Shown: in pieces, positions 2,214 to 50,819 of the stretch | Layout of the letters: every line of letters starts with the position of its first letter | Position numbering within the stretch: the stretch's first letter is position 1 | Source: Escherichia phage ELT1 | Sequence record: MZ892903.1 | Reading direction: 5' to 3' (one strand) | Length of the DNA stretch: 64,000 nt | Notes under the pieces: model-generated | Told to the model about the DNA's origin: nothing | Databases searched by the model: none | What the model saw: only the letters and a program-made list of their open reading frames with translations | Position numbers and translations under genes: made by a program

Positions 2214-2361
2214 TAGATAACAACGCAAATGTTAAATATGCACACATACCCTGGGCTAAAGCTTGTGAAAACACACTGCTAGCATCGATACAGATAGTTA
2301 AAACACATGCTACTATCCAACAAATAAATGAAATAACTCCTAATAATTTTGCGATATTCAT
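2206..2361 (-). CDS. ac: acriflavine-resistance membrane protein, 51 aa
   Basis: product MNIAKLLGVISFICWIVACVLTICIDASSVFSQALAQGMCAYLTFALLSND; position between 52 and stp as in T4. Confidence 0.65.
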   Translation of the reverse strand: MNIAKLLGVISFICWIVACVLTICIDASSVFSQALAQGMCAYLTFALLSND

Positions 2362-2368
2362 ATTTTCC

Positions 2369-2449
2369 TCACTGGCGTCCGAAGACGCCTTTGGTTTTAA
2401 GATTGTTACGATAGAACTGCATCACGTGTTCGTTATGGAAATTGCTCAT
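2369..2449 (-). CDS. stp: Stp peptide (suppressor of pnk; activator of PrrC anticodon nuclease), 26 aa
   Basis: product [26 protein letters not shown] matches recalled T4 Stp; start overlaps ndd stop (TAATG). Confidence 0.8.
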
Positions 2450-2907
2450 TAATATGCCTGCAAAACAAATTTAAAATTATCAGCCAACATACGATTCATT
2501 TCTTCAAGCGTTTGATACTCAGAATGATGATTACGAGTAAACGCTAAAGCTAACTGACCTTTTCCAAATCCCGTCGTCAGAGGTTTCATCTTAGAAGCAG
2601 GTAGATAAAATACCGTGTATGGAACATTGTTATTTGCAATAGTACGCGCAAGCTGAGATCGACGCTGGCGAATATGACTTAAAACCGCGCTGAATCCTTG
2701 CTTAGAACGCTGATTACCTACATAAAATCGTGCAGACACACATGGATTACTAAATGGACGACCATCTAATTTACTCACTAAAAAGTAAAATCCAGGTTTA
2801 GATAAAATATCTTTATGCGGAGTTCCCAAAAACCACTCACCGTTCTTGATTGTACCAATAACAGTTGCGCCTGCATTATTCAGATCAGTAACAGTCATAT
2901 ATTTCAT
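2449..2907 (-). CDS. ndd: Ndd nucleoid disruption protein, ~152 aa
   Basis: ORF 2449-2955 trimmed to [13 protein letters not shown]... start with GAGG RBS; matches recalled T4 Ndd. Confidence 0.85.
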
Positions 2908-2967
2908 ATTAATTTCCTCTAAATTATTTTCTACTCCAAGGCCGCATGAATACACACGGCCATTAAA

Positions 2968-3183
2968 TTACTCGTCGCAGTCGACGCTCAATTCCCAAAA
3001 CTCTTCTACGGTATAAGTTTCAGTATCATTTTCAATACAGAAACGTTCATTACTGTTATTTGCTAAAGTAGCATTAACTGTCGGTTTCTCGTTAGTGCTC
3101 TTAAGAGGTGAAATACGAATTAACTGATCACCGTTATCTAAACAGAAAATTTCACCAACTTTTATATCTTTAAAAATTTTCAT
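2968..3183 (-). CDS. hypothetical protein, 71 aa
   Basis: ORF track; ndd.1-like position. Confidence 0.45.
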   Translation of the reverse strand: MKIFKDIKVGEIFCLDNGDQLIRISPLKSTNEKPTVNATLANNSNERFCIENDTETYTVEEFWELSVDCDE

Positions 3184-3191
3184 AATTCACC

Positions 3192-3302
3192 TCAGGGAGT
3201 ATAAAATCCAAATGCAGTTGTTGACCATCCCATCCAATATAGGAAATTTGCACCAATGTAAAACATAAGAATATAAAACCAAATGTTTAGTAAATTCATC
3301 AT
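3192..3302 (-). CDS. small hydrophobic peptide, 36 aa
   Basis: own translation MMNLLNIWFYILMFYIGANFLYWMGW...; one of a run of tiny membrane ORFs. Confidence 0.3.
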   Translation of the reverse strand: MMNLLNIWFYILMFYIGANFLYWMGWSTTAFGFYTP

Positions 3303-3361
3303 TTTACACCATTCCAAATTGTTTCAACTACGGATTTTAAACCATTTTGATGAATATCAAT

Positions 3362-3496
3362 TCAGACAACTGCCATCAAATAGATTCCAACTACAACTGA
3401 ACCCAAGGCGAAAATCAGCATGAAAATGAATAAAGCCGGAAAAATATTATCGAAAAACCATTCAATAAATGTAAAAGCACTGCGTTTACGCTTCAT
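3362..3496 (-). CDS. small hydrophobic peptide, 44 aa
   Basis: own translation MKRKRSAFTFIEWFFDNIFPALFIFMLIFALGSVVVGIYLMAVV. Confidence 0.3.
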   Translation of the reverse strand: MKRKRSAFTFIEWFFDNIFPALFIFMLIFALGSVVVGIYLMAVV

Positions 3497-3503
3497 ATTT
3501 TCC

Positions 3504-3617
3504 TCACATAAATCCAAAGTAAACGTTTAATACATCAATCATTAAAACGATTGGGAATATACTCAAAACTATTAGTATTATAACTACATTCCATATAGCT
3601 TTAACAATCTTTTTCAT
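3504..3617 (-). CDS. small hydrophobic peptide, 37 aa
   Basis: ORF 3504-3752 trimmed to MKKIVKAIWNVVIILIVLSIF... because upstream part spans a promoter. Confidence 0.3.
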   Translation of the reverse strand: MKKIVKAIWNVVIILIVLSIFPIVLMIDVLNVYFGFM

Positions 3618-3639
3618 TTTCTGTTCCTCCGTAGTTGAT

Positions 3640-3695
3640 AGGGTAATAGTACCACGGAAGAACAGTCTTGTAAACAACTTTTTTAAAAATATTCG
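3640..3695 (-). promoter_or_regulatory. T4-type early promoter
   Basis: GTTTAC (revcomp) 3670-3675, -10 TAATAGTACCAC-like 3644-3655, A/T upstream tract. Confidence 0.45.
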
Positions 3696-3781
3696 TAATA
3701 AATGTGAATACCAACTACTACTGCCGAAACTTGCGCAACCCACCACGCACACGCAATAAGTACAGAATTCAAAATTTTCAT
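3683..3781 (-). CDS. small hydrophobic peptide, 32 aa
   Basis: own translation MKILNSVLIACAWWVAQVSAVVVGIHIYYEYF. Confidence 0.25.
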   Translation of the reverse strand: MKILNSVLIACAWWVAQVSAVVVGIHIYYEYF

Positions 3782-8685: not shown

Positions 8686-9212
8686 GCTCATCCATTCTTT
8701 ACGAAGGTCAGCGTTATCTCCCATGAGCATTTCAAAAAGCTCTTTCCAATTCTCAGGAAGTTTAACAACATCATAAACTGGGTTCTGAATCATTTCACGG
8801 TATTCAGATTTTTCCAAAGAGCCAAGTCCCTTAATATAACGGATGCTATGTTTAGGTAGAGCATCTTTGGCACTCTCATATTCAGCGACTGTATAAAACC
8901 ATTCTTGTTTTTTACCGACCTGAGCGATGATTACAGGAGTTTTGACAAAGCGAATTCTTCCTTGTTCAAACAGTTCTGGCCAATTACTAAAAAATCCGAG
9001 CAGAGAAGGATAAATAGAACCTAATCCAATAATCTCTTAATTATGAGGTATTTCAATGGATAGCCCGAAGGCTATCCATCGTGATCTGCGTCTGTCATAA
9101 TAGCGACATTCGCATAGTTCATTGAAGAGGATTTAATAGAACGACGAACATTGTTCTGCAATTTATATTTTTTCATATCAACGCTAGAAGAATCAATTTT
9201 TACAAATTTCAT
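8680..9212 (-). CDS. 60: topoisomerase II subunit gp60 with 50-nt translational bypass; coding = complement(join(8683..9024,9075..9212)), 160 aa
   Basis: codons 1-46 MKFVKIDSS...IMTDADHDG end GGA then TAG; translation resumes after landing GGA with LGSIYPSLLGFFSNWPELFEQGRIRF...WMSQ. Confidence 0.9.
9025..9077 (-). other. gene 60 bypass element: take-off GGA, UAG stop, stem-loop, 50-nt coding gap, landing GGA
   Basis: minus strand GGA TAG CCTTCGGGCTATCC...ATTATT GGA TTA; 50 nt from after take-off GGA through landing GGA. Confidence 0.9.
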
Positions 9213-10011
9213 TATACACCTCATAGAACTTTTCATCAGGAATCCAACCGCGTTTAAATTCATTAAATGCTCGGCCGAATAATTTTGAATTCACAGTTAT
9301 ATTATTAACTGATTTCCATTTAGCAACTCCCGTTCGTTTATAATGATCGGGGTCATATTTCGTGACGTACCATTCATATAAATTTGGTATTAATTTTACA
9401 GCCTCTGGATTTGTCGCTGATTTATTATACCATGGTTTCGCTTTTTCAAGTTCAGCTGCTTTTGCAGTAGCAGCAACAGTATTTCCAATACCAACTAATT
9501 TTTCAGCTTTAATGCGTGGATCATTAACATGAAGACGAAAAACTTCGCCTTTTTCATTTTTAAAGCATGTCATGCCTTTAATTCCAGGAAGCTTAACACC
9601 TTTATTAACACCGCACCATTCCTTTGGGTTAAATGATCCTTTAATTAATAAGGCGCATTTACCCGATTTAATACTTCTCATTAAAACTTTATCTTTCATA
9701 AAGTTTTTTGACCATTCAGATACTGCTCTTTGATGGTAAATTCTAGCAATTTCATATAATTTACTAGAACGTAAATATTTTTCAGTGTTTAACATTCTAT
9801 TCATCGCATATGCCATTTCACGATTACGATGAATTTTATATAGTAGAAAATGTGCTAAAAAGTGTTCACGAAAAGTCAGTTTCACCAAATTTTCTTTATC
9901 ATCAGAACCTCCCATTGATCTTGGAAGGATATGGTGAATTTCACCCTTAAATTTAGAAACGCGGGTTTTACCCCGCACTATTAAGTCATTATAGATTTTT
10001 TCGTAATTCAC
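9193..10011 (-). CDS. mobA: HNH homing endonuclease (MobA-like), 272 aa, GTG start
   Basis: HHILPRSMGGSDDKENLVKLTFREHFLAHF HNH motif; lies between 39 and 60, overlapping both. Confidence 0.75.
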   Translation of the reverse strand: MNYEKIYNDLIVRGKTRVSKFKGEIHHILPRSMGGSDDKENLVKLTFREHFLAHFLLYKIHRNREMAYAMNRMLNTEKYLRSSKLYEIARIYHQRAVSEWSKNFMKDKVLMRSIKSGKCALLIKGSFNPKEWCGVNKGVKLPGIKGMTCFKNEKGEVFRLHVNDPRIKAEKLVGIGNTVAATAKAAELEKAKPWYNKSATNPEAVKLIPNLYEWYVTKYDPDHYKRTGVAKWKSVNNITVNSKLFGRAFNEFKRGWIPDEKFYEVYNEICKN

Positions 10012-21655: not shown

Positions 21656-21901
21656 TTAACCACCAGTTACTTTCCACAAATCTTCGTTTGCAGCAATCCA
21701 TTCAGTACGCTGATTTTCTTCATATACAGTAGTATATGCTGCTTTTTCTGAAGGGAACGTCTGGTAATGAGCACCAGAAATTTTGTGAACGTCAGAATAA
21801 AGAGGGAAAGCTACTGAAATTTCCTTTCCTTCAATTTTCTTATTTCCATCTAATTTCTGCTCAAATGTTTTGATATTAACATAACCGCGAGTACTAGCCA
21901 T
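21656..21901 (-). CDS. soc: small outer capsid protein Soc, 81 aa
   Basis: matches recalled T4 Soc; AAGGAG RBS. Confidence 0.9.
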   Translation of the reverse strand: MASTRGYVNIKTFEQKLDGNKKIEGKEISVAFPLYSDVHKISGAHYQTFPSEKAAYTTVYEENQRTEWIAANEDLWKVTGG

Positions 21902-21931
21902 GTAATTCTCCTTTTATTTAAATTACATGAT

Positions 21932-21939
21932 TATTTATA
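21932..21939 (-). promoter_or_regulatory. late promoter TATAAATA upstream of soc
   Basis: exact TATAAATA on minus strand ~30 nt upstream of soc ATG. Confidence 0.5.
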
Positions 21940-21969
21940 ATAAATTCTCGCGGCTTTTAAGACGAGCTG

Positions 21970-22488
21970 TTAATAACCTCGGTCTTGACGAGCGAAATTT
22001 TCAGCATTTTTCAGATAATAAAGTTTAAAGATTTCTTCAGCCGTAAGACCGAGGCCTTGGAACATGTTCAGAACGAAATGAAGAATATCAATCATTTCGA
22101 ATTTAATTTCCAACTGGTCTTGTGGAGACAAATCAGTAATCAGAGTTTCACGTCGTTCACCATGTTGAGCTTTCCAAGGCTTCCATACAGCAGATGCATC
22201 TTTTTCACCATTGCTCATACCACCAAGAGAAGTCAGAAGTTCGCGGAATTCATCATCAATATAGTCTTTCTGATTGCGCAGCCAATCAACAACTTCACCT
22301 GCGGTAGCCAAATCATCAGGATGACGGTTATATTCAGGTTTATCTTTAGCTAAACGAATCTGCAGAGATTTCTGCATGTCAAGCATTACCTGCAGCGGGT
22401 CTTTTTCATCACCAAGAATATCCCAGTATTCATTTTGAGCTTTATCCGCGCCTTCAATCAGTTGACTACATTCGTTGAAATGTGGCAT
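21970..22488 (-). CDS. 56: dCTPase/dUTPase (MazG-like), 172 aa
   Basis: matches recalled T4 gp56. Confidence 0.85.
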   Translation of the reverse strand: MPHFNECSQLIEGADKAQNEYWDILGDEKDPLQVMLDMQKSLQIRLAKDKPEYNRHPDDLATAGEVVDWLRNQKDYIDDEFRELLTSLGGMSNGEKDASAVWKPWKAQHGERRETLITDLSPQDQLEIKFEMIDILHFVLNMFQGLGLTAEEIFKLYYLKNAENFARQDRGY

Positions 22489-22489
22489 G

Positions 22490-23140
22490 TTATTTTTCCT
22501 TTCTTATGAAGTTTTCTATCATATGTCTATAGCAGATATTAGGATAACCTGCCTTGACAGCTATTTTATTAAATTTTGTGCGCTTAGGTCTATTATTATA
22601 AACCCATAATTCATAAAGCGCATCATAACTATTCCATATTTCCCCTCGCCTAGGATTTGGTAAACCATATCGAGGCGAATTTTTACCGCTAAATCTTCCT
22701 TTTCGGGCTTTACTCATATTAGCCTTGGCTTCATCGGATATAATTTTACCTTTATGAGCTAGACGCATTTTGGCTTTAGTTTCTTCTGGAGTCTTTTTGC
22801 CTTTAATCCATGACGGCTTGCCATATCTAGGATTATTTTCACCCGAGAAAAGAACAGAGTTTTGGATTTTAAGGGTTTCTATTAATCTACTTGTTAATTT
22901 AACACCTTTATTATATCGCATTAAATTTACAGCATAATGCAATCCTCTCACATCTGGATATATTTTAGTTAATAATCTATGAGCTATAAAATGCTCACGC
23001 GCAGTTAACTCAACAAGATTGTTTTTGTCATCTGCTCCTCCCATACATCTAGGAATTATATGATGGCGTTCTTTATATCCATCAAGATGCCGGCATTTAG
23101 CTTTTGTAATTAAAGCCGAGTAAATTTTTTGGTAATTCAC
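22490..23140 (-). CDS. HNH homing endonuclease, 216 aa, GTG start
   Basis: N-terminus MNYQKIY... and HHIIPRCMGGADDKNNLVELTAREHFIAH; free-standing between 56 and dam. Confidence 0.75.
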   Translation of the reverse strand: MNYQKIYSALITKAKCRHLDGYKERHHIIPRCMGGADDKNNLVELTAREHFIAHRLLTKIYPDVRGLHYAVNLMRYNKGVKLTSRLIETLKIQNSVLFSGENNPRYGKPSWIKGKKTPEETKAKMRLAHKGKIISDEAKANMSKARKGRFSGKNSPRYGLPNPRRGEIWNSYDALYELWVYNNRPKRTKFNKIAVKAGYPNICYRHMIENFIRKEK

Positions 23141-23199
23141 ATATATCCTTTCAATTCATTAATAAGTTAAATAATTATATCATTTGAATATGTAAGCAA

Positions 23200-23988
<789 letters not shown>

Positions 23989-24089
23989 TCATTTATTGCA
24001 GCAAAAATGAATTATACAGTTCTTCATCATATGTATTTGATAGTAATACTAATACGTTTTGCGATAAATATTAATTTAAAGGAGGACAT

Positions 24090-24290
24090 ATGGTACAAAA
24101 ATTAATGGCACTTGTTAATGCCATCAAAGGTAATAAAAAGCGTATAGCTTTTACTATTTCTGCTACGGTAGGAATTTTACTCTGGAACTTTATTTTATCA
24201 CCTGTTGCTATTGCTCATGGCGTTAGTATTCCAGTAGTTACTCTTGATACATTCGTAGATTTAGCATTTGCTTTAGTTGGGTTAATTTAA
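24090..24290 (+). CDS. small membrane protein, 66 aa, plus strand
   Basis: strong RBS AAGGAGG 6 nt before ATG; hydrophobic product; only convincing plus-strand gene, convergent with gene 61. Confidence 0.5.
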   Translation: MVQKLMALVNAIKGNKKRIAFTISATVGILLWNFILSPVAIAHGVSIPVVTLDTFVDLAFALVGLI

Positions 24291-25315
24291 ATCTTAGCAT
24301 ATTTAGATAACCGCATTTTAGCCATCAACCCCTGTGCAATATTATTTTTCATATATTCCATAATTTGTTCAGGGGTTGCACCTTCCTTTCTAATCATATC
24401 ATTAACATCTTTTGATTTCCAGGGAGATTTATCCCAAAACATAACCCTTTCTCCTGCATCAACTAATTTAGTCATTCGTTTGATAGTGTCAGGATGACGA
24501 GGTTCATTATCTAAAACCCACACTCGTCTATCTTTAAATGGAACAACTTCTAGGTCTAATTGACCACCCGTAATAGCTATACCATTTTCAATAAAAAGTG
24601 AATCTATAGGTCCTTCTAGAACATATACATCACCATCTTTAACCCGTTCGACTCCATAGATTTTTGTTGCCTCAGGATAAGCTTTGATGGTGATATATTT
24701 TTGAGGAGCATCTTTCTTTAATGCACGTCCTTGAAAAGACTCAGCTTTTCCATTAGCATTATAAATTGGAATAACAAGACGAGGCTCAGAAATTTCCTTT
24801 TTATATGTTCCCGGTGCTATGCTATTAACCAATTTAGGCCATTCAGTTGTAAACCAAAGATATTTCCATTTATCCTTTGGAATACAACGAGCTTTTACAT
24901 ATTTTATAATTGGATGGTCTTCCGCCAGTTTATCTAATCTAACACATGACGGAAGAGATTTAATTATTTTCTTCTCAGGTTGTTTAGGAAGTTCTTTAGG
25001 TTTTTCTACTGGACGACTTTTACCTTTTTCTTTTCTTATTTCAAAGATATACTCACGATATAAATCGGGTTCAAACTCCTTTAAATATATTCCGATTGGT
25101 GCATGATAGTTACAGTTATAACAATGAATATTTCCTTCATTATTATCACCATAATACCATCCACGGGCTTTATTTTGGTCGGTTTTTGAATCTCCACACA
25201 CTGGGCATCTAAACCGCAATTTAAAAGTTGAACTATTATTTACTTGTGTGAATTTAGGTAAATGAGCTAATGCACGGTATGCAAACTCATTATCAATCCA
25301 AGGTATTGATGACAT
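24287..25315 (-). CDS. 61: DNA primase, 342 aa
   Basis: zinc-finger CPVCGDSK...CYNC; matches recalled T4 gp61. Confidence 0.95.
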   Translation of the reverse strand: MSSIPWIDNEFAYRALAHLPKFTQVNNSSTFKLRFRCPVCGDSKTDQNKARGWYYGDNNEGNIHCYNCNYHAPIGIYLKEFEPDLYREYIFEIRKEKGKSRPVEKPKELPKQPEKKIIKSLPSCVRLDKLAEDHPIIKYVKARCIPKDKWKYLWFTTEWPKLVNSIAPGTYKKEISEPRLVIPIYNANGKAESFQGRALKKDAPQKYITIKAYPEATKIYGVERVKDGDVYVLEGPIDSLFIENGIAITGGQLDLEVVPFKDRRVWVLDNEPRHPDTIKRMTKLVDAGERVMFWDKSPWKSKDVNDMIRKEGATPEQIMEYMKNNIAQGLMAKMRLSKYAKI

Positions 25316-49726: not shown

Positions 49727-50197
49727 TTAATCATGTTTCCACACCCCATCGGTATTTGACCAAAGTCGCTGATTATCTGATCCTCGCCACAGCTTTTTGG
49801 TCGGAAGATTTTTCTCATACTTCCCATCAATAATAACATCAACATATTTAAGCATTTCTAGTTGTTTAATATCTTCAAACTTATATCCTGTCCACAACCA
49901 GATATCTTTCTCCGGAAATCTTGCTTTAACCCAAGAAACTAAATTTGAAATCTCTTCTCGGTTCTGTGGATAAAGTGGGTCACCACCGGTTAAGGTAAGG
50001 CCTTGGATATACGATTTGCTTAAATGGGACGCAAGTTCTTTAACGGTATTCATAGTGAATAACTGTCCGTTACGAGCATTCCAAGTACTACGATTATAAC
50101 AACCTTCGCATTTATGCAAACATCCAGTGACGAAGAGAACGACCCTGCATCCAGGACCATTAACAAAGCAGCACGGGTATATTCTATCATAATTCAT
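49727..50197 (-). CDS. nrdG: anaerobic ribonucleotide reductase activating protein (radical SAM), 156 aa
   Basis: ORF trimmed to MNYDRIYPCCFVNGPGCRVV...; cysteine cluster CLHKCEGC. Confidence 0.85.
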   Translation of the reverse strand: MNYDRIYPCCFVNGPGCRVVLFVTGCLHKCEGCYNRSTWNARNGQLFTMNTVKELASHLSKSYIQGLTLTGGDPLYPQNREEISNLVSWVKARFPEKDIWLWTGYKFEDIKQLEMLKYVDVIIDGKYEKNLPTKKLWRGSDNQRLWSNTDGVWKHD

Positions 50198-50819
50198 CTT
50201 TATATTTCCAAGTATATCCCTTATGAATAGATTGAATTCCTTTGCAACATTTATAAACAGCAGAATGAAAAAATCCTGCATTTCTTATTTCAGTTGCTCC
50301 AGTTAGTTCTATTGTATTTCCGTCTGGTGAATAGCCAATAACCGTTTTGGTGTTAAAGCGATTTCTAGAACTATTTTTGATATGCTCTTTATGACTAGTA
50401 GACAAAGTTCTTCCTGTTAGCCCATCAGATATCCTTTTTCCAAAATCATCAGGAAGAGTTACTTTAGACCTAGCTATGCTCATTAGCTTCTTAGTTTTAT
50501 CGCTTCTTTTTGTGCCACGCTGATTTTCAAATTTCTTAGCTTTTGCATACGCGTATTGTGAAGAAGTAACTTTTCTATGCTTACTATTACTCATTATCCA
50601 ATATGCATCATACATCTTTCCACCACATATTTTAGCCAATAAATGGTGAGCAGTATAGTGGGCCTTATAAGTTAAAAATACTAAGTTGTCTAAATCATCT
50701 GAACCACCCATGCTTCTTGGAATTATATGATGAAGTTCATACCCGGCTTTAGTTTGACGGGGCTTAGATGGGTGTTCAGCAGAATTAACTAGATTTGAAT
50801 AGATTCTGTCATAATTCAT
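50187..50819 (-). CDS. HNH homing endonuclease, 210 aa
   Basis: MNYDRIYSNL... and HHIIPRSMGGSDDLDNLVFLTYKAHYTAHH; free-standing between nrdG and nrdD. Confidence 0.75.
   Translation of the reverse strand: MNYDRIYSNLVNSAEHPSKPRQTKAGYELHHIIPRSMGGSDDLDNLVFLTYKAHYTAHHLLAKICGGKMYDAYWIMSNSKHRKVTSSQYAYAKAKKFENQRGTKRSDKTKKLMSIARSKVTLPDDFGKRISDGLTGRTLSTSHKEHIKNSSRNRFNTKTVIGYSPDGNTIELTGATEIRNAGFFHSAVYKCCKGIQSIHKGYTWKYKDEL

Follow-up and report, generated by a model that had tools for sequence, protein, structure and literature searches.

What occupies the interval between gene 56 and the DNA methylase gene dam in Escherichia phage ELT1, and how might it have come to reside there? The stretch of sequence record MZ892903.1 analysed here, 64,000 nucleotides in length and referred to below as the window, belongs to a Tequatrovirus (a T4-like phage), and a 24-kb portion of it is approximately 96% identical to its closest relatives in GenBank. 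Around gene 56, the minus strand carries soc, gene 56, an additional ORF and dam in that order, after which dam.1, on the plus strand, and the primase gene 61 follow (Table 1). A preliminary description of the window had reported an HNH endonuclease ORF with a GTG start between 56 and dam, and this ORF, hereafter HNH56, is present at exactly the positions given in the table.

Table 1. Features of the gene 56 region, of HNH56 and of its paralogues in the window (positions refer to the whole stretch)
Feature	Position	Strand	Remarks
HNH56	22490-23140	minus	216 aa; starts with GTG; TAA stop separated from the gene 56 ATG by 1 nt
Gene 56 (dCTPase/dUTPase)	21970-22488	minus	Pfam dUTPase_2; second cistron behind HNH56
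dam (D12-class N6-adenine methyltransferase)	23200-23979	minus	Pfam MethyltransfD12, E 1e-50
soc	21656-21901	minus	Pfam Soc, E 1e-54
soc-56 interval, empty	21902-21969		68 bp
dam.1 (small ORF)	24090-24290	plus	
Primase gene 61	24287-25315		
mobA-like Mob-type HNH paralogue	9193-10011	minus	272 aa; starts with GTG; overlaps the upstream gene by 23 bp
Mob-type HNH paralogue	50187-50819	minus	210 aa; ATG start
HNH catalytic motif (H26 H27 ... N41 ... H50)	22991-23065	minus	plus H54 at 22979-22981
NUMOD3 motif (linker, residues 107-126)	22763-22822	minus	Pfam PF07460, 29.3 bits against a cutoff of 20.4
C-terminal module of ~57 aa (residues 159-216)	22493-22666	minus	presumed DNA-binding/specificity domain
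GAAAGGA, left copy	23146-23152	minus	native gene 56 Shine-Dalgarno (SD) sequence, now serving HNH56; left junction of the cassette, where identity to T2 ends
GAAAGGA, right copy	22497-22503	minus	inside the last HNH56 codons (R-K-E); SD for gene 56
Promoter, T4 middle-type (putative)	23174-23198	minus	a homologous promoter precedes gene 56 in T4 and T2
Allele block travelling with the cassette	22477-22491	minus	UTR ...AAAATAAC plus gene 56 codons 2-4, CCA CAT TTC (MPHF)

The opposite side of gene 56 offers a first point of comparison. The interval between soc and 56, which the preliminary description had taken to be empty, indeed contains no ORF, no GIY-YIG gene and no segF, the gene that T4 carries there. 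In T2 and T6 this slot is taken by small ORFs of the soc.1/soc.2 type, in phage Kha5h by an HNH gene other than HNH56, and a tblastn search with SegF produced matches only in L047 and L049. As had been proposed, the homing-endonuclease history at gene 56 is unlike that of T4, with segF absent and an HNH gene lying on the other side of gene 56. The window also encodes two further HNH ORFs, and the N-terminal signature MNYxKIY...HHIxPR is common to all three, in agreement with the conservation noted earlier; the GTG start of HNH56 recurs in the mobA-like paralogue, as had likewise been noticed, and the remaining paralogue begins with ATG.

The unusual start codon raises the matter of whether HNH56 is a gene at all. 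Its first possible start is the GTG at 23140-23138, the stop-to-stop frame begins just five codons before this triplet, and the next in-frame ATG (M33) falls within the HNH motif, so that the GTG is the real start. An SD sequence, GAAAGGA, is located 5 nt upstream, the GTG is conserved in both Tequatrovirus and Jiaodavirus copies, and the ORF is intact and full-length in 55 records. All three HNH ORFs of the window match PHROG 655, annotated "homing endonuclease" (E 2.3e-60 for HNH56; 3e-57 and 3e-42 for the other two), and HNH56 is therefore not a chance ORF. A non-ATG start and the absence of a significant match in the PDB might suggest a pseudogene, or a spurious frame devoid of function, but the integrity of the ORF across 55 records, the conserved GTG with its SD at 5 nt, the PHROG match (E 2e-60) and a dN/dS of 0.09 (see below) leave that explanation with practically no probability, and conservation at the sequence level already refutes it.

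HNH56 displays the modular organization of a homing endonuclease. The catalytic residues H26, H27, N41, H50 and H54 are invariant in an alignment of 49 sequences, comprising HNH56 and 48 homologues. In an AF2 model with a mean pLDDT of 79.6 (approximately 90-95 for residues 1-100), the predicted HNH finger consists of strands at residues 24-27 and 42-45 followed by a helix at residues 47-60, with pLDDT above 90, and beyond it the model continues with linker elements that are helical and ends in a small C-terminal domain made up of helices. The NUMOD3 motif in the linker is the sole element of HNH56 recognized by Pfam, and PADLOC places its HEase ("homing endonuclease") match at residues 124-211. 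The N-terminal ~69% of the protein is common to more than 3000 database proteins, and the C-terminal ~57 residues are present in full length in only five clusters, a pattern of sharing that, as far as sequence comparison goes, would be anticipated if a conserved nuclease had been joined to a binding module specific to its target.

Comparisons of structure and sequence point toward the Mob family. When the HNH56 model was compared by Foldseek with viral models (BFVD), MobC and MobB of T4 appeared among many "homing endonucleases" with E values near 1e-7; the sequence identity of HNH56 to these two proteins is approximately 33-37% and is confined to the N-terminal part. Sequence and Foldseek searches of the PDB returned only weak, non-significant HNH-domain matches (Cas8-HNH, McrA, IscB), with no structural template for HNH56 and nothing on the C-terminal module, and NCBIfam yielded only sub-threshold matches to IscB/Cas9 HNH motifs. 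HNH56 resembles I-HmuI and I-TevIII in its predicted extended layout, in which a linker joins an HNH domain to a DNA-binding domain; I-HmuI acts by nicking a single strand (cited in PMC2790892, PMC2988022). Those enzymes are encoded within introns, whereas HNH56 lies outside any intron and has no significant homologue in the PDB. At the gathering threshold, Rfam detects no family, and hence no group I intron, anywhere in the window, so that HNH56 is free-standing; an intron-encoded HNH endonuclease was considered and rejected on this ground and because the ORF resides in a 5′ UTR and leaves gene 56 uninterrupted. A literature search revealed no activity or biochemical data for HNH56 or its orthologues. 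By its motif, modular layout, free-standing position and polymorphic occurrence, HNH56 can be classed as a Mob-type free-standing HNH homing endonuclease.

The polymorphism is evident in the distribution of the gene. In a megablast search with the ORF alone, HNH56 was found in 58 phage records at 86-99% nucleotide identity, the carriers being Tequatroviruses of Escherichia, Yersinia, Shigella and Salmonella, Jiaodaviruses of Klebsiella and one Dhakavirus variant. It is absent from T4, T2 and T6, and some 722 T4-like records hold the soc-56-dam region, so that HNH56 is not the usual occupant of this site and the earlier reading stands. A probe spanning the HNH|56 junction aligns across that junction in 55 records, in which HNH56 always lies immediately upstream of gene 56, and among orthologues (216-218 aa) the distance to gene 56 is 1-4 nt. 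The description of the site as lying between 56 and dam is thus correct for the window and does not hold in general: IME537 alone (GenBank and RefSeq copies of one phage) matches across the dam|HNH junction, G50, Klebsiella 15882-1, Kpn5N and VR5 display the order primase, dam.1, HNH, 56 with no dam, and the constant feature is the position directly upstream of gene 56.

Among 45 IMG/VR loci retrieved through gp56, the interval between the primase gene and gene 56 is hypervariable, containing dam, ORFs of 186, 94 and 108 aa, and others. An IMG/VR search with the HNH56 protein gave five loci, namely VR5, an apparently misassembled genome (L009/L046) with duplicated fragments of primase and gene 56, and three distant paralogues, and the distribution was therefore derived from the GenBank junction searches. 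Orthologues in GenBank are variously named homing endonuclease, MobE or HNH endonuclease, and those of G50, IME537, Yersinia phage fPS-2, Kpn5N (gp130) and VR5 ("mobE") occupy the same site upstream of the dCTPase gene; except in IME537, no dam lies upstream of them, whereas the window keeps dam. In Klebsiella phage Kpn5N, a homing endonuclease upstream of the dCTPase gene has been described that is absent from the 95%-identical sister phage Kpn6N (PMC9960720). HNH56 is a minority occupant of the gene 56 site, yet one that recurs in Tequatrovirus, Jiaodavirus and Dhakavirus.

Filled and empty sites can be compared base by base, and exact pairs of this kind are known in two genera. The 59-bp spacer between dam and HNH56 belongs to a 200-nt stretch without a single mismatch to the dam-56 region of T2, up to ...ATGAATTGAAAGGA, after which T2 reads AAAATA and the ATG of gene 56, whereas the window reads TATAT and the GTG of HNH56. 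At the other end, the last HNH56 codons, ...AGAAAGGAAAAATAA, are followed by a single C and the gene 56 ATG. The HNH-less phage Kha5h equals the HNH-bearing phage G50 minus 649 bp at a GAAAGGA repeat; of the two 200-nt flanks, one contains 1 mismatch and the other 9. From the T2 and the Kha5h/G50 junctions it follows that the insertion is a cassette of 649 bp in the 5′ UTR of gene 56, placed between SD and ATG and bounded by a 7-bp direct repeat, GAAAGGA. The right copy of the repeat constitutes the right junction, at which HNH-less relatives begin to match exactly.

The position of the cassette has consequences for its expression. The spacer between dam and HNH56 contains a MotA-box-like TGCTTA (23198-23193), a 13-nt gap and a -10 element TATAAT (23179-23174), which we take to be a promoter of the T4 middle class from its resemblance to T4 middle promoters. 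A scan for sigma-70 promoters, which does not cover the T4 middle type, found such sites to be no more numerous than in shuffled sequence. The cassette brings neither a promoter nor an SD of its own; it would be transcribed from the middle-type promoter that serves gene 56 in T4 and T2 and translated from the original SD of that gene at a weak GTG start. Its last codons recreate an SD (GAAAGGAAAAATAAC), such that gene 56 could function as a translationally coupled second cistron (TAA-C-ATG). Conceivably, the cassette may also place approximately 650 bp between the promoter for gene 56 and the oriA primer and the mapped oriA site. Promoterless cassettes like that proposed for HNH56 have been described for several seg and mob genes of T4, and reliance on host promoters lying upstream is common among free-standing endonucleases (PMC2988022).

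A precedent is MobE of T4, which is promoterless and nicks the adjacent conserved gene nrdB, and whose own genome is protected by local polymorphisms (PMC2790892). Like HNH56, MobE combines an N-terminal HNH region bearing MNYxKIY...HHIxPR with a distinct C-terminal region, is co-oriented with its neighbours and lies beside an essential gene of nucleotide metabolism, and the protection proposed for its carriers matches that proposed here. The two genes differ in how translation is arranged. In place of translational overlap, or of the RBS-sequestering hairpin reported for mobE, HNH56 has a GTG start behind the SD of the host gene; a hairpin of the mobE kind was not found at the HNH56 start (fold z = 0.5). 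The insertion site differs as well, as the Mob endonucleases of T4 occupy nrdA/nrdB, 60/39, alpha-gt and other sites (PMC2988022), and HNH56 the 5′ UTR of gene 56.

Between the window and a Jiaodavirus, primase is 57-73% and gene 56 65-81% identical, whereas identity within HNH56 reaches 94-100% over the first 300 nt and 99% over the last 100 nt. Its middle 200 nt behave in the opposite way, being 74-80% identical to the Jiaodavirus copy and 96-97% to the copy of Dhakavirus VR5, the ends of which are only 50-79% identical to the window. These segment identities imply that HNH56 alleles have moved as mosaics between genera to the same site and, judged from the alignments, are mosaics of at least two lineages. 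Comparison of the window with the Klebsiella copy gives a dN/dS of 0.09, with a saturated dS of approximately 2.5 and a dN of 0.08 in the middle segment. Such a ratio is indicative of strong purifying selection and argues for a functional protein.

An alternative is that HNH56 was formerly mobile and has since become immobile or domesticated, its patchy occurrence reflecting ordinary recombination and deletion. The gene might be retained because it supplies the SD for the essential gene 56 or is coupled to it, or because it has acquired a new role, such as the exclusion of competing phages. The gene 56 SD does lie inside the last HNH56 codons, so that imprecise deletions would harm gene 56; embedded host expression signals of this kind favour retention according to a review (PMC2988022), and many HNH-less genomes with the same flank allele would fit loss events. 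Low dN/dS, however, extends over the whole ORF including the C-terminal module, with the catalytic residues invariant, which indicates that the nuclease itself is under selection. Moreover, the three genera share almost identical segments of the gene although its neighbours are only 57-73% identical, and this requires recent horizontal spread to one and the same site. Domestication is accordingly regarded as quite improbable. The preferred reading, for which the observed grounds are family membership, exact junctions, distribution, mosaic transfer across genera and purifying selection, is that the 5′ UTR of gene 56 very probably holds, in HNH56, a cassette for a functional homing endonuclease of the Mob type.

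Where such an enzyme would cut is suggested by a short block of sequence that accompanies it. In all HNH-bearing loci read, gene 56 starts with ATGCCACATTTC (ATG CCA CAT TTC, MPHF) preceded by ...AAAATAAC, whereas the closest HNH-less relatives have ...AAAATA ATG GCT TAC TTT (MAYF), and T4, T2 and T6 encode MAHF. Gene 56 of the window differs from that of phage fFiEco06 by 5 mismatches in the first 12 nt and by 5 in the next 188, and in Jiaodavirus L031/L032 contrast with L033/L034 in the same manner, in the UTR and at +4, +9 and +12. The stretch that different genera have in common ends approximately 12-19 nt upstream of the GTG and approximately 12 nt into gene 56, and a tract this short suggests a break at or next to the SD, the ATG or the first codons. 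Gene 56 is the probable target gene, and its start has about an even chance of being the homing site proper. The brevity of the tract further suggests, by analogy, that HNH56 resembles intron-type HNH enzymes more than it does SegF and SegG, which cut at a distance.

From these patterns we infer a cycle that encompasses the cleavage activity of HNH56, its target and the immunity of its carriers. During mixed infection, a co-infecting relative that lacks HNH56 would have its allele nicked or cut by the N-terminal HNH domain, either directly at the SD, the ATG or the first codons of gene 56 or no more than a few bases away, with the NUMOD3 linker and the C-terminal module guiding the enzyme to the site. 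Recombinational repair from the HNH-bearing genome would then copy the cassette along with a very short flank, comprising the "AC" of the UTR and codons 2-4. Carriers could be protected by the insertion itself, by the flank substitutions or by both. Empty sites include the forms ...GAATTGAAAGGAAAAATA ATGGCTYACTTTAAY... and ...AAAATAAC ATGCCACATTTCAAC..., and of the approximately 77 HNH-less records that match from the SD onward, many carry the MPH allele (Kha5h, KPV15/L032, L016 and L031 among them). In that light, the MPH allele may be the mark of a lineage, or a trace left where the HNH gene was lost, and not a determinant of immunity; its presence without HNH56 could reflect precise loss at GAAAGGA, a resistant allele or the lineage in which the cassette originated. 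In the Dhakavirus variant VR5, the HNH gene adjoins a MAH allele.

It could also be that HNH56 is active and its target lies elsewhere, deeper in gene 56, as it does for SegF, or on the dam.1/primase side, with the MPH allele merely linked to the cassette. SegF, SegG and MobE all cut away from their insertion sites (PMC2988022, PMC2790892), MPH also occurs without HNH56, and gene 56 is itself mosaic between genera, being 90-96% identical to the VR5 copy at 22400-22201 as against approximately 65% for primase. Against this, co-conversion tracts of approximately 12-19 nt and 12 nt are most simply explained by a break beside the insertion point, and a distant target is considered unlikely.

The C-terminal module is not confined to HNH56. 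Over the last 49 residues of the unannotated 283-aa HNH ORF in the soc/56 slot of Kha5h, identity to the C-terminal end of HNH56 amounts to 47% (E 1e-10). Pfam has no family for the module; a local jackhmmer search detected it in a number of further T4-like endonucleases, with weak matches in SegF homologues. An hhalign comparison of the module profile with three SegF sequences gave a probability of 89% (E 2e-6), relating the C-terminal ~55 aa of SegF to the module; BLASTP between HNH56 and SegF is not significant, so that the two C-termini are linked by profile methods only. The hhalign link agrees with the description of SegF as a "hybrid" endonuclease in a review (PMC2988022). SegF of T4, like HNH56, flanks gene 56, which it demonstrably targets (PMC2988022, Table 1). 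It differs in that it is a GIY-YIG rather than an HNH enzyme, lies on the opposite side of the gene and is absent from the window, and a common origin of the module is not in itself evidence of a common DNA specificity.

The remaining peculiarity of the window is the presence of dam, a rare combination found beside HNH56 only here and in IME537. It might be imagined that HNH56 and Dam form a pair akin to a restriction-modification system, since the two genes are adjacent and co-oriented in both phages. Among the 55 records containing the HNH|56 junction, however, dam accompanies HNH56 only in IME537, with no obligate co-occurrence; HNH56 belongs to the Mob/NUMOD3 homing family; and PADLOC assigns dam to an orphan-methyltransferase profile (E 6e-183) and HNH56 to "homing endonuclease". 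This very improbable pairing is effectively refuted by the distribution. A separate idea, that GATC methylation by Dam matters at the putative target, was dropped: at +29 to +32 of gene 56 the window has GATT and IME537, which carries both dam and HNH56, has GATC.

If HNH56 is a homing endonuclease cassette, the rarity of its association with dam finds a possible explanation in the geometry of the locus. The end of dam lies 59 bp from the insertion point and most HNH56 carriers lack dam, so that homing from such donors into a dam-bearing genome should usually remove the methylase gene. The order dam-HNH-56 would require a crossover inside the approximately 14 bp (ATGAATTGAAAGGA) common to backgrounds with and without dam, and so narrow a span would explain, as far as sequence comparison can indicate, why that order is rare.

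HNH56 is real but ordinary, and its orthologues are already known, being annotated in dozens of T4-like genomes and mentioned in print. As a discovery it is small, adding one more uncharacterised Mob-like homing endonuclease. What is new here is the base-exact anatomy of the insertion, the mosaicism across genera, the finding of a short flank block that moves together with the cassette, and the observation that the order retaining dam is rare. The locus provides a clean natural example of a base-defined insertion with a 7-bp repeat, a captured host SD and promoter, and a regenerated SD, and the very short flank block predicts a target at the gene 56 start. A broader interpretation, advanced tentatively and with some doubt, is that gene 56 is contested by nucleases from both sides that reuse one C-terminal module, with HNH56 cutting the start of the gene and its spread from dam-less donors normally erasing dam. 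SegF and the Kha5h-type HNH enzyme may represent the soc/56 side of this contest and HNH56 the 5′ UTR side, and the co-conversion tract would be unusually short, covering the UTR and codons 2-4 and including an Ala2Pro change in an essential enzyme. If this is true, the presence or absence of a DNA methylase in T-even phages would be shaped by a selfish nuclease.

The slot between gene 56 and soc, which holds segF in T4, is occupied in Enterobacteria phage Kha5h (NC_054905.1) by a different gene, an unannotated 283-aa ORF that starts either with a TTG codon or with an ATG 5 codons downstream and fills the seemingly "empty" 860-bp gap. This ORF carries an HNH-like motif (...EAHHILPK...), and its last 49 aa share 47% identity (E 1e-10) with the C-terminus of HNH56, the HNH homing endonuclease encoded upstream of gene 56 in the window. 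A similar ORF is present at locus L009. The window also contains a mobA-like HNH ORF, which overlaps the gene upstream of it by 23 bp; an identical overlap is given for T4 mobA and its upstream gene (PMC2988022).

Coordinates of features in the window and in related loci
Feature	Source	Position	Strand	Remark
mobA-like HNH ORF	window	9193-10011	-	GTG start, like HNH56
dam.1, small 66-aa hydrophobic ORF	window	24090-24290	+	
HNH-like 283-aa ORF	Kha5h (L058)	2709-3560	+ (in locus)	
ORF resembling that of Kha5h	L009	4640-5437		
HNH56 orthologue	Shigella phage SSE1, MK639187.1	97092-97741		BFVD A0A4D6DXE2
181-186-aa ORF beside dam	fFiEco06 (L002)	2229-2789		
181-186-aa ORF beside dam	T2_31 (L060)	2999-3544		
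181-186-aa ORF beside dam	IME537 (L001)	3220-3780		

The HNH56 orthologue of phage SSE1 matches over 650 nt rather than 651 and is annotated as a protein of 390 aa, approximately the sum of the HNH (216 aa) and gp56 (172 aa) products, which suggests that the two ORFs have been fused, either through the loss of 1 nt or through an error in sequencing. In the T4 record, oriA is placed 22 nt inside gene 56, and the RNA initiated at the promoter preceding that gene is described as its primer. In the window, the point corresponding to oriA of T4 is position 22466, separated from the promoter region (23174-23198) by the 649-bp HNH cassette.

Directly upstream of dam, many relatives carry an ORF of 181-186 aa that is absent from T4 and from the corresponding interval of the window (23980-24089). 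Its resemblance to DpnII and other type II restriction enzymes is weak (Pfam DpnII, E 0.0045, under the cutoff; PADLOC REase_II, E 9e-5) and confined to the C-terminal half of these profiles. The ORF may be what is left of a GATC restriction endonuclease next to a GATC methylase. The nearby dam.1, to which no Pfam family is assigned, is oriented opposite to its neighbors in the window; almost every T4-like locus examined, from different genera, retains it between primase and the variable interval.

The 155-kb record IMGVR_UViG_2974741249_000001 (L009/L046) displays fragmented and duplicated primase segments, together with two partial copies of gene 56 flanked by HNH genes of the HNH56 and Kha5h types. 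Two T4-like phages grown in one culture were probably merged into this chimeric assembly, which was left out of the evidence.

Gene 56 of the window (21970-22488) is itself a mosaic between genera, particularly within 22201-22400. Over positions 22400-22201, it is 90-96% identical to the copy in Dhakavirus VR5, versus 64-70% in the adjoining 100-nt blocks and ~65% for the primase. The mosaicism is consistent with repeated gene conversion near homing-endonuclease sites.
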